64,000 nt of DNA from assembly GCF_058153355.1 (NCBI RefSeq), contig NZ_CM177019.1; one strand, 5' to 3'. The position numbers and the translations under genes are program-made. The notes beneath the pieces were generated by a model, which was not told the DNA's origin, did not search any database, and was given only the letters and a program-made list of their open reading frames with translations. How positions within the stretch are numbered: the first letter of the stretch is position 1; each line of letters starts with the position of its first letter. Positions 9,022-53,339 of the stretch are shown here, one piece after another.

Positions 9022-10563
9022 TCACTCTTCGCTTTTCTTCTGGTTTAAGCCATATTCCCGCAACTTATTGGCAATCGCGGTATGCGAAACGCCGAGACGT
9101 TTTGCCAGTTTGCGCGTGCTGGGATAATTGCGATAAAGCTGAGTTAATACCGAGCGTTCAAAACGGCTGGTAATTTCGTCCAGCGAACCTTCCATCGCAT
9201 CTTCGCCCACGGCTACCGTTGCGGCGTCATAATCCGGCAACAAAATATCCTGAGGACGCAGCTCATAGCCGTCCAGTTGTGTCAGTGCGCGATAGATAGC
9301 GTTCTTTAACTGCCGCACATTTCCCGGCCACGCATAACGCGTAAGTACAGTATTCAGGTCAGCGGCCAGTTTCGGACGCGGCACGCCCTGCTCGTCGGCA
9401 AAGCGAGCGACGAACAGTTCAGTTAACGGCATGATGTCCTGCGGACAGTCACGTAACGGCGGCAGATTGAGCGTCAACACGTTCAGACGATAATAGAGAT
9501 CTTCACGGAACACGCCTTTTTGCACCAGTTCGACCAAATTCTTCTGCGTAGCGCAAATAACCCTTACATCGACATGCACTTCATGATCTTCACCAACTCG
9601 ACGGAAAGTACCATCATTAAGGAAACGCAGTAATTTCGCCTGCATCCTTGGCGACATCTCGCCTATCTCATCTAACAGCACCGAACCACCGTTCGCCTGC
9701 TCAAAGAACCCTTTTTTACCTTCCGGAGCATGACCAAACAGTTCACTCTCGACCGCATCTTCCGGTATAGACGCGCAGTTCAGCGCCAGGTAAGGTTTGC
9801 CCGCTCGTGGGCTTGCCTGATGGCAGGCGTAGGCAAAGAGATCTTTACCTGTACCGGTGTCACCCGTAATCAGCAACGGCGCGCTTAGCATCGCCAGTTT
9901 CTGCGCCTGTTCGACAACATGCTTCATTTTCGGGCTGACGGCGACAATTTGACTGAAGGCACTGACGTCCTGTGCAGCGACATTCTGCAACTGACGGCCC
10001 ATACGAATCGTCGAGCGCAACATCACCACCGCACCGGTCAGAACGTGTTGATCATTTTCATCCTGAAGATAAACAGGCGTAATCTCCATCAGGAAATTCT
10101 GCCCATTAATAACGACATGCTCGTTATGCGAGTCTTGCGGTTCGCTTTCCAGCCAGCGTAAAAAATTAAAGCCGTTAATTAATTGCGCGGCGGTATGGTT
10201 GCGCAGGCGATCCAATTTTTGCCCAAAAAGCTGACAGCTCGCCGGGTTCGCCATATCCACTTTGCTTTTCATATCAACAGAAAGCACAGGTTCAGGCAAC
10301 GCCTCCAGTAACGCGCTCAACGCCAGATGCTCACGTTCGGAAGGCATCCACGGGACAGTACGCACATCGGTAACACCTGCAATACGGCGTATTTCGGCCA
10401 TCAGACTGCTGAAGCTCTCAAACTCCAGTTCAGCAAAATTGAGGTAGATTCGCCCAATGGGGTCAATCTCAATACCGCGTAAATCAATGCCTCTCAGCAC
10501 CAGTAAATCGAGTAATTCGCGGGTCAGACCAAGTCGGTCTTCACAAAAGACTTCCAGACGCAT
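9022..10563 (-). CDS. tyrR: Transcriptional regulator TyrR (sigma-54-interaction-type AAA+ domain, C-terminal HTH)
   Basis: ORF 9022..10590; start at MRLEVFCEDRLGLTRELLDLL gives 513 aa; GDTGTGKD Walker A and C-terminal HTH present; recognised as E. coli TyrR. Confidence 0.95.
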   Translation of the reverse strand: MRLEVFCEDRLGLTRELLDLLVLRGIDLRGIEIDPIGRIYLNFAELEFESFSSLMAEIRRIAGVTDVRTVPWMPSEREHLALSALLEALPEPVLSVDMKSKVDMANPASCQLFGQKLDRLRNHTAAQLINGFNFLRWLESEPQDSHNEHVVINGQNFLMEITPVYLQDENDQHVLTGAVVMLRSTIRMGRQLQNVAAQDVSAFSQIVAVSPKMKHVVEQAQKLAMLSAPLLITGDTGTGKDLFAYACHQASPRAGKPYLALNCASIPEDAVESELFGHAPEGKKGFFEQANGGSVLLDEIGEMSPRMQAKLLRFLNDGTFRRVGEDHEVHVDVRVICATQKNLVELVQKGVFREDLYYRLNVLTLNLPPLRDCPQDIMPLTELFVARFADEQGVPRPKLAADLNTVLTRYAWPGNVRQLKNAIYRALTQLDGYELRPQDILLPDYDAATVAVGEDAMEGSLDEITSRFERSVLTQLYRNYPSTRKLAKRLGVSHTAIANKLREYGLNQKKSEE

Positions 10564-45325: not shown

Positions 45326-45368
45326 GCACCTCATCCTGACAGGCCCCCCCCCTCAGGATGAGGTGTTC
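45326..45368. terminator. Bidirectional hairpin between the convergent sapF and MFS genes, with a C10 homopolymer in the loop
   Basis: cacctcatcctga - caggcccccccccc - tcaggatgaggtg; 13-bp perfect stem. Confidence 0.6.
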
Positions 45369-47918: not shown

Positions 47919-50900
47919 TTACTCCTGACGGCGCGGTTTACCGGCAAACAAACGTTTCACCAGTACAAAAAACAGAGGAACGAAGAAAATGGCCAGTAAT
48001 GTAGCGGTCAGCGTGCCGCCAATAATGCCCGTACCAATGGCGATGCGGCTGTTCGCCCCTGCACCGGTTGCTATCGCCAGCGGCATTACCCCCGCAATAA
48101 ACGCCAGCGAGGTCATGATGATTGGGCGTAAACGAGTCTGCGCCGCGCGTAATGCCGCACGACTCAAGGAATAACCCTCTGCAACCGCCGCTTCAGCAAA
48201 TTCCACAATCAGAATGGCGTTTTTCGACGACAAGCCGATAGTAGTTAATAGCGCTACCTGGAAGTAAACGTCGTTGTTTAAATCACGCATCCAGGCCGCC
48301 AGCGCCGCGCCAAGAAGCCCCAGAGGGATCACCAGAATGACCGAGAACGGGACTGACCAGCTTTCGTACAGTGCTGCAAGGCAGAGGAAAACCACCAGAA
48401 TAGAAACTGCATACAGACTTAATGCCTGACCGCTCGCCAGTTTCTCCTGCAATGACAAACCACTCCAGGCCCAGGTTGTTCCCGCAGGAAGACTGTTTGC
48501 CAGTTCCTCCATTTTTGTCATTGCATCGCCGGAACTAAAGCCAGTCGCGTTTTCGCCCTGAATTTCATAGGCTGCCGAGCCGTTGTAGCGCACCAGTCTT
48601 TCCGGTCCATACTGCCAGCGGGTGGTCGCAAAAGCAGAGAATGGTGTCATGGCGTTATCGCTACCGCGCACAAACCATTTACCTAAGTCTGACGGCGCAG
48701 AACGAAATTCGCTGTCGCCCTGAATGTAGACTTTTTTCACACGACCACGGTCAATAAAGTCATTCACATAAGTACCGCCCCACGCACTGGACAGGGTGTC
48801 GGTGACATCATTCAAACTCAACCCTAATGACACCGCTTTATTGCTATCAATATCTACCTGCAATTGCGGCATTTGTGGCAAATCATTGGCGCGTACAGAA
48901 TGTAACTCCGGACTTTGATTCGCTTTTTCTATCAACTGATTACGCATTTGCAGCAGTGTTTCACGATCGGTTCCACCGTTAGCTAACAATTCAAACGTAA
49001 AACCATTGCTTTGGCCCAGCCCATCAACGGCTGGCGGCGTCATCGCAAATACCGTCGCATCACGAATTGTGCCCAGCTCTTTGGTAGCCCGTAGGGCGAT
49101 AGCCTGGGCGGTGTTTTCTGCCCCTTTACGTTGAGACCAGTTTTTCAACGAAACAAACGCCATCCCGGTGTTCTGTCCGCTGCCGCTAAAACTGAAACCA
49201 TCAACGGTAAAAATGACATCGGTATTTGCTTTCTCGTTAATCAGGAACCAGTCAACAATCTGGCGATTCACTTCTGCTGTACGGGCAGCGGTCGCCCCGG
49301 CCGGCAGCGTGTACTGCACCATGATTTCGCCCTGGTCTTCAGTGGGTAAGAAACTGCCCGGCAGTTTCCACATCATCAGGGCCATTCCACCACCCAGCAC
49401 GACATAAAGCCCCATCGTTCGGGCTGCACGGCGCAGGACATAAATTACGCCTCGCTGATATTTATCTTCAGTACGGCGGTAAAAGCGGTTAAATGCGCCG
49501 AAAAAGCCTTTTTTATGTGGCGGAACATGCTGGAGGACGGAACCGCACAGGGCGGGAGTCAAGGTCAATGCCACCACCACGGAAAGCAGCATTGCGGAGA
49601 TGATGGTGATGGAGAACTGACGATAAATTACGCCCGTAGATCCCCCAAAGAAGGCCATCGGCAGGAATACGGCTGACAACACCAGCGCAATGGCAACCAG
49701 TGCGCCAGAAATCTCGCCCATTGATTTTTCCGTGGCTTCACGCGCGGGCAACCCTTCGTCACGCATAATGCGTTCGACGTTCTCCACCACCACAATGGCA
49801 TCGTCCACCAGCAAGCCGATCGCCAGCACCATTGCAAACAACGTCAGGGTATTAATCGAATAGCCAAACAACGCAAGAACGCCGAATGTGCCCAGCCAAA
49901 CGACGGGGACAGCTAACGCCGGAATCAGTGTGGCACGCAGGTTTTGCAGGAATAAATACATCACGCAAACCACCAATACGATGGCTTCAAACAGCGTCTG
50001 AATTACGTCCTCTACGGAGATTTTAATAAATTCAGTGCTGTCTTTCGGGTATGCGATGTCGTATCCCTGCGGCATGTTCCGCTGGAATTCGGCAATCTTA
50101 TCCTTGACCAGCGTCGCCGTATTCAGCGCATTCGCACCGGGCGAAAGCATTACAGCAACCCCGGCAGACGGGTGACCGTTAAGTTTGCCGATAGCGGTAT
50201 AATCTTCACTGCCCATCTCAACGCGAGCCACATCTTTTATACGAACAACTGCGCCGTCTGACTGGCTTTTCACGATAATATTTTTGAACTGATCCACCGT
50301 CTGCAAGCGAGACTGCGCACGTACCGTTGCGGTCAGTTGCTGAGTATCCGGTGAAGGCAATGCCCCTATTTTCCCGGCAGTAACCTGCACGTTTTGCGCT
50401 TCAATAGCACTTTGCACGTCTGAAGGCATCAGCGAGTAAGACGCCAGTTTGGCCGGGTCGAGCCAGATGCGCATAGCGTATTCCGCGCCAAAGACTTGCA
50501 GACTCCCCACACCTTCAACACGCGCCAGGGGGTCCTGAACGTTACTGACCAGCCAGTCGGCGATATCCGAACTGGAGGCTTTGTCAGTGGTGTCATACAC
50601 GGCAGCAATCAGCAAAAAGTTGCTTTGTGATTTCTCCACCGTAACACCCGTTTGCTGCACTTCGCTGGGTAGGCGCGACTCCGCCTGCTGAATTTTATTC
50701 TGCACCTGAACCTGTGCAGTATCTGGATCGGTACCTTGTTCAAAGGTCACATTAATACTGACCGAACCATCAGAGCTACTGGTTGAGCTGAAATAGAGTA
50801 AATTATCAAGCCCAGTGAGTTGTTGCTCGATAACCTGAGTCACGCTGTTCTCCAGCGTTTCGGCAGAAGCACCAGTATAAGTGGCTGAAATTTTAATGGT

Positions 50901-51026
50901 CGGCGGTGCAACGTCAGGATATTGCGCGACGGGTAATGTGCGAATAGCCAGAATCCCCGCCAACATAATCAAAATGGCGATAACCCAGGCAAAGACCGGG
51001 CGGCGAACAAAAAAGCGCGAAAACAT
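47919..51026 (-). CDS. RND multidrug efflux permease (AcrB/HAE1 family)
   Basis: 1035-aa ORF MFSRFFVRRPVFAWVIAILIMLAGILAI...; size and N-terminus typical of AcrB-like pumps. Confidence 0.9.
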   Translation of the reverse strand: MFSRFFVRRPVFAWVIAILIMLAGILAIRTLPVAQYPDVAPPTIKISATYTGASAETLENSVTQVIEQQLTGLDNLLYFSSTSSSDGSVSINVTFEQGTDPDTAQVQVQNKIQQAESRLPSEVQQTGVTVEKSQSNFLLIAAVYDTTDKASSSDIADWLVSNVQDPLARVEGVGSLQVFGAEYAMRIWLDPAKLASYSLMPSDVQSAIEAQNVQVTAGKIGALPSPDTQQLTATVRAQSRLQTVDQFKNIIVKSQSDGAVVRIKDVARVEMGSEDYTAIGKLNGHPSAGVAVMLSPGANALNTATLVKDKIAEFQRNMPQGYDIAYPKDSTEFIKISVEDVIQTLFEAIVLVVCVMYLFLQNLRATLIPALAVPVVWLGTFGVLALFGYSINTLTLFAMVLAIGLLVDDAIVVVENVERIMRDEGLPAREATEKSMGEISGALVAIALVLSAVFLPMAFFGGSTGVIYRQFSITIISAMLLSVVVALTLTPALCGSVLQHVPPHKKGFFGAFNRFYRRTEDKYQRGVIYVLRRAARTMGLYVVLGGGMALMMWKLPGSFLPTEDQGEIMVQYTLPAGATAARTAEVNRQIVDWFLINEKANTDVIFTVDGFSFSGSGQNTGMAFVSLKNWSQRKGAENTAQAIALRATKELGTIRDATVFAMTPPAVDGLGQSNGFTFELLANGGTDRETLLQMRNQLIEKANQSPELHSVRANDLPQMPQLQVDIDSNKAVSLGLSLNDVTDTLSSAWGGTYVNDFIDRGRVKKVYIQGDSEFRSAPSDLGKWFVRGSDNAMTPFSAFATTRWQYGPERLVRYNGSAAYEIQGENATGFSSGDAMTKMEELANSLPAGTTWAWSGLSLQEKLASGQALSLYAVSILVVFLCLAALYESWSVPFSVILVIPLGLLGAALAAWMRDLNNDVYFQVALLTTIGLSSKNAILIVEFAEAAVAEGYSLSRAALRAAQTRLRPIIMTSLAFIAGVMPLAIATGAGANSRIAIGTGIIGGTLTATLLAIFFVPLFFVLVKRLFAGKPRRQE

Positions 51027-52147: not shown

Positions 52148-52174
52148 TATTTTCTCCAGGGTGAGAAATACCCT

Positions 52175-52275
52175 CCTCATTGAAATTAATGAGGATATGT
52201 CAGGGATATTCAGTTATAACGAACCCGCATCGCGAAATGAATTTCGCAATGAAATAAGGGGGATTAATATCCCCC
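52175..52275. promoter_or_regulatory. Cluster of three inverted repeats between the TetR gene and the MFP gene (candidate operators / pump promoter)
   Basis: tcctcatt-gaaatt-aatgagga (52174-52195), gcgaaat-ga-atttcgc (52232-52247), ggggga-ttaata-tccccc (52258-52275). Confidence 0.5.
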
Positions 52276-52295: not shown

Positions 52296-52862
52296 TTATT
52301 TATTTATCAACATACTAACAATATCCTGATATATTTCCTGCAGATGTTGTGGATCGCTTTTTTGCGGTGTTAAACGACGATAAACCGTACCTTCCATCAT
52401 GGTAGCAAACACTTCAACGCAGCAATGAATGTGATCGTCGCTAAGATGGGGATGCATTCTTTTCATATGTGCACAACCGTTAGCGAACATTCTGGCGTCA
52501 GCTTCTTCAAGCATTGCCATAACCCGCGGGTTGCGTGTGGCTTCTGCAGCCACTTCCAGCATCAGCGCGTCGTCGTCCTCATTTAAGGATTTACGCAAGG
52601 CAAGGACTTCCGGGAAGTGATCGGTACGCGCGTCAATGTCCATTTGGGCAATACGAAAGTCGATGATACGGCGAACCATCTCTTCAATAATGGCGTCTTT
52701 GTTGGCGAAGTAACGATATATCTGACCCACGCTAAGCTGAGCTTCGCTGGCAATTTGCGACATACTGGCGGCATGAAATCCGCAGCGACGAAAACACCGA
52801 CGGGCGGCGTTAATGATTTCATCCTGACGCTGTTTGTGGCGTATCTCCAGCTTGCTGGTCAT
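52296..52862 (-). CDS. TetR/AcrR-family transcriptional regulator
   Basis: ORF 52296..52961; preferred start MTSKLEIRHKQRQDEIINAARRCFRRCGFHAASMSQIASEAQLSVGQIYRYFANK (HTH near N-terminus), preceded by AGGAGA; co-directional with the pump genes. Confidence 0.75.
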   Translation of the reverse strand: MTSKLEIRHKQRQDEIINAARRCFRRCGFHAASMSQIASEAQLSVGQIYRYFANKDAIIEEMVRRIIDFRIAQMDIDARTDHFPEVLALRKSLNEDDDALMLEVAAEATRNPRVMAMLEEADARMFANGCAHMKRMHPHLSDDHIHCCVEVFATMMEGTVYRRLTPQKSDPQHLQEIYQDIVSMLINK

Positions 52863-52888
52863 TTCTGTCTCCTGGCCTATCACTTGGT

Positions 52889-52904
52889 GAGAATGATCAT
52901 TCTC
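52889..52904. promoter_or_regulatory. 16-bp perfect palindrome gagaatgatcattctc upstream of the TetR gene (candidate autoregulatory operator)
   Basis: Perfect dyad seen directly, 27 bp upstream of the preferred TetR start. Confidence 0.5.
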
Positions 52905-53339
52905 ATTTTTGCTAATTATACGTTTCTCCAAAGTAATGGAAAGTATTTTTATCTTATTCATGGTGCATATTCTGATAATGAAGAGATTGTGGAGATTCTG
53001 TGAAGATAGTTGACAATATTAAGTTGGGGTCAATTCATCAGAAAGGCAGCGACTTGTTGTCGCCAGTTCTGTTTTCATCATCAAACTTATCGGAGCTAAT
53101 ACGAATAGTTTCATAGTCAGATTCTATAAGATATTTCCCCAACCTACCCCTTGCAGGCGTCAAGAGTAGATAACGCAAAATGCTCTGTACCGCAGCTTCT
53201 CTCCGGTACAGAAAGCGCAACTATAGCCACCCACAGCCAGGTTGATTATAATAACCGTTTATCTGTTCGTACTGTTTACTAAAACGACGAATCGCCTGAT
53301 TTTCAGGCACAACAAGCATCAACAATAAGGATTAAAGCT

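Follow-up and report, generated by a model that had tools for sequence, protein, structure and literature searches.

The eefR-fabI interval of Escherichia coli is a known control region and contains no ycjD remnant

We studied the gap between the eefR and fabI genes in a 64,000-nt stretch of Escherichia coli DNA (contig NZ_CM177019.1 of assembly GCF_058153355.1), referred to below as the window. According to the sequence and the list of its open reading frames, this gap is 477 bp long (52863-53339) and lies between the start codon of eefR (52860-52862, minus strand) and the ATG of fabI (53340). The genes around it follow in the order sapD and sapF (plus strand), then the genes for an MFS protein, an outer-membrane factor, an RND pump, an adaptor and a TetR regulator (minus strand), and then fabI, yciW and rnb (plus strand). 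The gap is bounded on the left by the following gene:

52296-52862, minus strand: eefR, encoding a TetR-family repressor, the first gene of eefRABCD (188-aa ORF; TetR/AcrR family regulator according to PGAP)

Together, the five genes on the minus strand make up eefRABCD, an operon already described in the literature. Primers eefR-F2 and pET-eefR-F (PMC12482432) begin with ATGACCAGCAAGCTGG, which is the start of eefR in the window, and eefR is co-directional with the MFP, RND, OMP and MFS genes. The window's eefB (RND pump) is an intact ORF of 1035 aa (47919-51026); in the genome of E. coli O157:H7 strain LSU61 the annotation gives the same gene as a pseudogene with a frameshift (L001 4056-7164). 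In all seven eef-type E. coli records inspected, the gap is free of PGAP annotations. The G+C content of the region is 39% vs 51% for the window, with a minimum of 34.5% at 52900-53099.

A sequence-only reading of the window had described this place as an unassigned 477-bp gap between a TetR gene and fabI, with a 60-codon minus-strand ORF (ORF60 below) inside it. The gap and the ORF are indeed present, while the label "unassigned" could not be maintained. The locus, the eefRABCD/ycjD dimorphism and the eefR promoter with its operator are already known and were published in 2025-2026. In E. coli of phylogroups B2, D, E, F and G the eefRABCD operon is always located between sapF and fabI (PMC12817139, Microb Genom 2026). 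Phylogroups A, B1 and C, together with ST69 and ST182, contain a 354-nt ycjD ORF instead, and the operon was probably lost from these lineages (PMC12817139). The region described in E. coli ATCC 35218 and ATCC 25922 (PMC12482432, PMC12817139) is the same locus with the gene order sapF, eefD-C-B-A-R, fabI; its primers map to the window with 0-1 mismatch and the palindrome described below is in the same place. The ATCC 35218 sequence differs by a few strain-level SNPs, the structure being the same. In general, the gap DNA is 98-99% identical to that of other eef-type E. coli. The published primers map to 52863-52881, 52972-52991 and 53158-53178 (1 mismatch) and delimit two fragments used in PMC12482432 as the eefR promoter and as an EMSA probe:

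52863-53178, minus strand: equivalent of the published 316-bp PeefR reporter fragment (primers PeefR-F/R, PMC12482432 Table S2)
52863-52991, minus strand: equivalent of the 129-bp EMSA probe P1 (primers eefR-gel-F/R, PMC12482432 Table S2)

Since these primers map onto 52863-53178, most of the supposedly unassigned DNA is already in use as a promoter fragment.

The part of the gap adjacent to eefR contains the expression signals of this gene:

52863-52887, minus strand: eefR 5' leader with the Shine-Dalgarno sequence GGAG (complement of 52869-52872), read from the sequence
52888-52905, no strand: putative EefR operator, a perfect 18-bp palindrome TGAGAATGATCATTCTCA (inverted repeat I4; match to TGAGAANNNNNNTTCTCA)
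52915-52942, minus strand: predicted sigma-70 eefR promoter, -35 TTTCCA at 52942-52937, 16-nt spacer, -10 TATAAT at 52920-52915 (consensus scan, 10/12)

Thus, the promoter of the TetR gene is located within the gap, as had been supposed. Toward eefR, the -10 element (52920-52915) is followed by the operator (52905-52888) and the ATG (52862). The operator begins 9 nt downstream of the -10 and therefore covers the predicted start site. The motif TGAGAAN6TTCTCA has a single exact match in the 64-kb window, at 52888-52905. EefR was shown to shift a 129-bp probe from strain ATCC 35218 carrying TGAGAACGATCATTCTCA, and binding was lost in EMSA after deletion or point mutation of the palindrome (PMC12482432, Virulence 2025). 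In the same work, about 316 bp upstream of eefR directed gfp expression approximately 10-fold over background, and this expression was repressed by EefR (PMC12482432). The operator of the window differs from the tested ATCC 35218 sequence at one central base (T here, C there), which falls within the N6 of the published motif; both forms were seen among orthologues. By analogy with this near-identical DNA, from which both EefR binding and promoter activity are taken, 52888-52905 would be the EefR operator of an autoregulated promoter.

To describe the distribution of these elements, we used 48 retrieved loci encoding EefR relatives. An exact or near-exact copy of the palindrome was revealed upstream of eefR in nearly all related loci, which belong to some ten genera. 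Among 16 loci scanned for it (from Escherichia, Enterobacter, Kluyvera, Lelliottia, Kosakonia, Phytobacter and Klebsiella), the palindrome was exact in 15 and contained one mismatch in the remaining one. The loci of Pantoea and Erwinia contain variant forms, and within 110 nt upstream of eefR no palindrome was visible in two Lonsdalea loci. In most loci with a recognisable -10, the palindrome directly follows a TATAAT-like hexamer. The sequences CGTATAAT and CTTTCCA are kept in most orthologous loci; GGAGAC(A/G)GA(A/G)ATG is recurrent in the Escherichia loci, and similar GGAG/GAGG motifs were found in the others. One more operator-like sequence, TGAGAAATACCCTCCTCA, with one mismatch to TGAGAAN6TTCTCA, is located at the eefA start (52162-52179). 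It was considered as a second EefR operator and rejected: none of the 16 orthologous loci checked contains it, and it is therefore probably a chance match.

Between these elements and the fabI side of the gap, two regions could be distinguished when the window was compared with E. albertii, E. whittamii and two other Escherichia lineages:

52951-53030, no strand: upstream block conserved among eef-carrying Escherichia species (region-wise identity vs synonymous sites)
53031-53183, no strand: apparently unconstrained, indel-rich spacer including the hairpin 53047-53065 (alignment to other Escherichia species)

The eefR promoter together with the upstream block (52863-53030) is 90-98% identical in three of the four other Escherichia loci. 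The block itself is 91-98% identical to E. albertii, E. whittamii and Escherichia sp. MOD1; the third codon positions of the flanking genes in those loci are less conserved (75-90%). Since the block is more conserved than synonymous sites, the description "promoter plus junk" is incomplete, and the block is possibly an UP element, an activator site or a site for a nucleoid protein. It was not found upstream of eefR in other genera, where BLASTN gave weak matches alone (E 0.06-0.7). A MarA/SoxS/Rob box in the block was rejected, as its GCAC core is not kept in E. albertii and E. whittamii (alignment by eye).

The spacer is organized in a different way. It has 28-62% identical columns and 63-179 gap columns against the other Escherichia species, which places it below synonymous sites in conservation, and about 48 bp present in three of these loci (L004-L006) are missing from the window. 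In Escherichia sp. MOD1-EC7003 the eefR-fabI spacer contains an ERIC (IRU) element of about 127 bp (L006 about 9560-9690); the standard primers ERIC2 and ERIC1R match this locus exactly at 9613-9634 and 9635-9656. This insertion implies that the spacer tolerates insertions, and it is probably neutral. We also considered that the spacer might be what is left of a gene found beside eefR in other genera. This was rejected after BLASTN and TBLASTX comparisons with 44 other loci, in which similarity beyond the core promoter was confined to Escherichia.

The right part of the gap belongs to fabI and contains the edge of the variable segment:

53184-53216, no strand: probable vestige of ancestral fabI-upstream DNA, 33 bp, forming a hairpin in this allele and adjoining the junction (similarity to the K-12 allele)
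53217-53339, plus strand: fabI promoter and leader, with the right junction of the eef/ycjD dimorphism at its left end (conservation; promoter scan, 10/12)
Within the latter, plus strand: predicted fabI -35 TAGCCA at 53224-53229, 17 nt, -10 TATAAT at 53247-53252, and Shine-Dalgarno sequence AAGGA at 53327-53331

The sequence 53217-53339 was matched in 5420 of 5426 E. coli genomes, whichever allele they carry. It is 98-99% identical across Escherichia species vs 81-89% at the third codon positions of fabI. Conservation across Escherichia, Salmonella and Klebsiella is limited to the -10 hexamer and about 30 bp preceding the fabI ATG; the -10 is invariant in the three genera and the ribosome-binding site is also kept. 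It should be mentioned that the constraint on 53217-53339 is much stronger than a promoter alone needs. A structured fabI leader was rejected as a candidate, its fold being no better than that of shuffled sequences (z = -1.1).

When the sapF-fabI interval of a K-12-like genome was compared with the window by BLASTN, the K-12-like DNA was 98.5% identical from exactly 53217 onward. Of the complete E. coli genomes (5426 in total), 2034 match the whole 477 bp with an identity level of 97.9-99.4% (eef-type), and 3386 match only 53217-53339; the ycjD segment was found in 3377 of the 5426 (at least 80% coverage), in agreement with the distribution given in PMC12817139. The right edge of the eef/ycjD swap is therefore located at 53216/53217, and the earlier suggestion that the gap marks one junction of a variable segment was borne out. 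The 33 bp to the left of this point (53184-53216) have the pattern CTG.CCGCAGC....CTCCGGT in common with the K-12 allele and a weaker likeness to Salmonella and Klebsiella, and hence appear to be diverged ancestral fabI-upstream DNA rather than cargo. The left junction of the segment lies just after sapF:

45327-45365, no strand: left junction, sapF terminator hairpin common to both alleles (window vs L002 2363-2405)

The hairpin is formed by CACCTCATCCTGA...TCAGGATGAGGTG in the window and by CACCTCATTCTGACAA...TTGTCAGAATGAGGTG in the K-12-like genome (L002 2363-2405). The two substitutions, T>C and A>G, are on opposite arms and compensate each other, so that pairing is kept; the loops are unrelated, and the allele-specific DNA begins right beyond the hairpin. 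The GTG annotated as start codon of ycjD in K-12 overlaps with the 3' arm of this hairpin.

Outside the eef-type E. coli, four more Escherichia lineages, E. albertii and E. whittamii among them, were also found to have eefRABCD between sapF and fabI. Among the loci retrieved, it adjoins fabI in Escherichia only and is located elsewhere in Enterobacter, Kluyvera, Lelliottia, Kosakonia and other genera. Since E. albertii and E. whittamii share the eef arrangement, it looks ancestral, and within Escherichia the ycjD arrangement is probably derived, in agreement with PMC12817139. The sequence-only reading had proposed that the efflux cluster was gained, or ycjD lost, here; with the cluster at exactly this site in the other Escherichia lineages, the direction of change was probably the reverse.

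The ST69-like ycjD allele (L063 2304-3000, encoding a 121-aa product) coincides with the K-12 allele (L002 2336-3123) at its left and right junctions; it does not contain the internal duplication of the ycjD 3' end, of about 103 bp, that was found in the latter. The common junctions argue for one origin of the ycjD segment and its spread by recombination. This suggests a history different from the independent losses of eef proposed in PMC12817139, and the argument for a single origin is an addition to the literature. A further addition concerns the other genera. In Salmonella (L066 1-2518; the fetched stretch excludes sapF) an EAL-domain gene, steC and two hypothetical ORFs are located upstream of fabI, and in Klebsiella pneumoniae (L067 1-2526) a cytosine permease gene and hutD lie between sapF and fabI. 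Thus, the DNA upstream of fabI appears to be a hotspot in which the cargo varies by genus while the fabI -10 and ribosome-binding site are fixed.

Taken together, it is highly likely that the gap is the control region between the divergent eefRABCD operon (leftward) and the essential fabI gene (rightward) and consists of four parts. The first one (52863-52950) would comprise the sigma-70 eefR promoter with the 18-bp palindromic operator just downstream of its -10; an EefR dimer bound to the operator would repress eefR itself and the co-transcribed pump genes, and loss of EefR binding would derepress the otherwise cryptic pump. The second part would be the moderately conserved upstream block (52951-53030) and the third a neutral, indel-accumulating spacer (53031-53216), in which ORF60 and two hairpins would be by-products and not genes. 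The fourth (53217-53339) would be the fabI core promoter and leader common to all E. coli. The boundary between the third and fourth parts would correspond to the right edge of a two-allele polymorphism, 7.9 kb of eefRABCD vs about 0.6-0.7 kb of ycjD, with the sapF terminator hairpin as the left boundary of both alleles.

Other explanations of the spacer had to be weighed against this one, beginning with the ORF within it:

53038-53220, minus strand: ORF60, 60 codons, chance ORF (TTG start; fails gene tests)

ORF60 could encode a genuine small protein found in eef-carrying E. coli only, being open for all 60 codons in the window and only four codons shorter in O157:H7 and two other strains, but we regard this as extremely improbable. 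No convincing ribosome-binding site precedes its TTG start, a Pfam scan allowing E<=10 gave no match, and the ORF is absent from the PGAP records inspected and from the gene caller output of one more locus (L061). In three of seven E. coli strains sampled, including ST131, codon 5 is TAG, and in E. albertii, E. whittamii and another Escherichia lineage the frame is destroyed by indels (2, 13 and about 48 bp, besides the ERIC insertion). TBLASTN identity of ORF60 is 54-80% vs 96-100% for the neighbouring proteins. As many as 17 ORFs of at least 20 aa overlap the 477 bp, so a 60-codon ORF in non-coding DNA with 39% G+C is no more than expected by chance. The two other longest small ORFs were likewise rejected as genes: no Pfam family was found in the three longest ORFs of the gap, and they are broken in other strains or species.

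The same data bear on the idea that 53031-53216, including ORF60, is a decayed ycjD disrupted when the efflux cluster arrived, as the sequence-only reading had supposed for the ORF. The idea takes its appeal from the presence of ycjD at the equivalent position in K-12-type genomes, where ycjD indeed lies upstream of fabI as the reading had stated (order sapF, ycjD, fabI), and from the pseudogene-like evolution of the spacer without constraint. However, BLASTN of the K-12 sapF-fabI interval against the window, even with a word size of 7, matched the two flanks alone (the sapF 3' end and 53217 onward), and the best E values in TBLASTN with YcjD (DUF559, PF04480) were 1.5 against the window and 0.59 against the gap alone. 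The K-12 interval has in common with the window the fabI promoter and leader, the sapF hairpin and the vestige at 53184-53216; it differs in carrying ycjD (a DUF559 gene), G+C-rich repeats and a second, partial copy of the ycjD 3' end, all of them without counterparts in the window. Moreover, ycjD reads toward fabI and ORF60 is on the opposite strand, and the eef arrangement, being present in E. albertii and E. whittamii, is older than the ycjD arrangement (see also PMC12817139). Alignment and TBLASTN were the checks that the reading itself had named, and an absence of ycjD-derived sequence was what it held to speak against decay; since no such sequence was found at the DNA or protein level with the sensitivity of these searches, the idea fails on its own terms and can be given almost no credence. 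The gap is the known eefR-fabI control region, an ordinary finding; a ycjD remnant is absent from it, and the 60-codon ORF is there by chance.

It is also very unlikely that the spacer is functional non-coding DNA, that is, a small RNA, a minus-strand terminator or insulator at 53184-53212, or an H-NS nucleation site. The hairpin 53184-53212 corresponds to inverted repeat I3 with 12-nt arms (92% complementary); on the minus strand its energy is -20.2 kcal/mol (z = -3.2 vs shuffles), and it is followed by CAUUUUGCGUU, a short U-rich stretch, as would be expected for a terminator. As an insulator, it could prevent transcription coming out of the fabI promoter region from reaching the eef promoter in its repressed state. 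Both this hairpin and that at 53047-53065 fold better than shuffled sequences (z = -2.3 to -3.2). Further points in favour of a non-coding function are the low G+C content of the region, the cryptic state of the operon in E. coli (PMC12482432) and the silencing of eefABC by H-NS in K. aerogenes (Masi et al. 2005, as cited in PMC12817139). However, the stems are not conserved: the stem of 53184-53212 contains the uncompensated substitution G53206C in three of seven E. coli and is imperfect in E. albertii, and the hairpin 53047-53065 is lost in one of the other Escherichia lineages (L006). The spacer is conserved less than synonymous sites, and the terminator scan gave no call at 53184-53212. 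In the Rfam 15 scan of the gap (E<=10) the sole match was the archaeal C/D-box snoRNA sR5 (RF01304), with 12.3 bits vs a threshold of 40 (E = 4.3); it is meaningless, and a known RNA family was therefore rejected. As to silencing, EefR alone explains the repression in the reporter assay (PMC12482432), and the authors of PMC12817139 regard H-NS silencing as unlikely so near the essential fabI promoter.

With the spacer taken as neutral, the position of the junction relative to fabI still deserves attention. The breakpoint of the swap is about 7 bp upstream of the fabI -35 hexamer, so that the DNA preceding the essential fabI promoter differs between the two alleles from about -42 outward. We compared both alleles with a 13-position FadR consensus. 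Just left of the junction, the K-12 allele alone contains the FadR-like core CTCCGGTCGGACCTGGC (L002 2986-3002; 9/13), and the eef allele has a hairpin and AT-rich DNA at this position. Another FadR-like sequence, ATCTGTTCGTACTGTTT (53261-53277; 10/13), is present in both alleles just after the fabI -10. Scores of 9-10/13 occur about once per kb. The assignment of a FadR site was rejected at this frequency of matches, the coordinate in PMC8115981 having given no unambiguous placement of the RegulonDB site. We consider it unlikely that fabI regulation differs systematically between the eef-type and ycjD-type alleles or, separately, that 52951-53030 is an activator site waking the cryptic pump. 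If this were true, FadR activation of fabI, and with it triclosan tolerance, could differ between phylogroups B2/D/E/F/G and A/B1/C.

The eefR control region can be compared with several known systems. Like the classical acrR-acrAB and tetR-tetA systems, it has a palindromic operator over the promoter, with autorepression and derepression leading to pump expression. Unlike in these systems, eefR is co-directional with the pump genes, being the first gene of their operon and not divergent from them; a single operator serves the whole eef operon, and the divergent neighbour is an unrelated essential gene. The eefABC operon of Klebsiella (Enterobacter) aerogenes, which is silenced by H-NS (Masi et al. 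2005, as cited in PMC12817139), encodes an orthologous pump, is cryptic under laboratory conditions and has AT-rich upstream DNA. It differs in having no eefR (PMC12817139) and in not being located beside fabI.

As a discovery, these data are of small importance, but they are of use to annotators. An appropriate label for the gap is eefR-fabI regulatory region, with 52888-52905 entered as the EefR operator and ORF60 left out of the gene list. On its right side the variable segment can be taken to end at 53216/53217, with vestigial ancestral sequence back to about 53184.

Two minor observations should be added. Twelve "plasmid" records of PLSDB (H33-H44) with fabI-like DNA were all typed as non-mobilizable, and several of them are 4.8-5.4 Mb in size. 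The presence of fabI on plasmids was therefore rejected, as these records look like chromosomes or chromosome fragments filed as plasmids and not like mobilised fabI. In a record of E. coli SCPM-O-B-8794 (L003 9842-10000), the region upstream of eefR is just 62-74% identical to the window, and the genes on its two sides are 95% (eefR) and 94% (fabI) identical at the nucleotide level. Recombination may have exchanged the promoter region of this strain, in which the operator and the -10 are intact despite the divergence.
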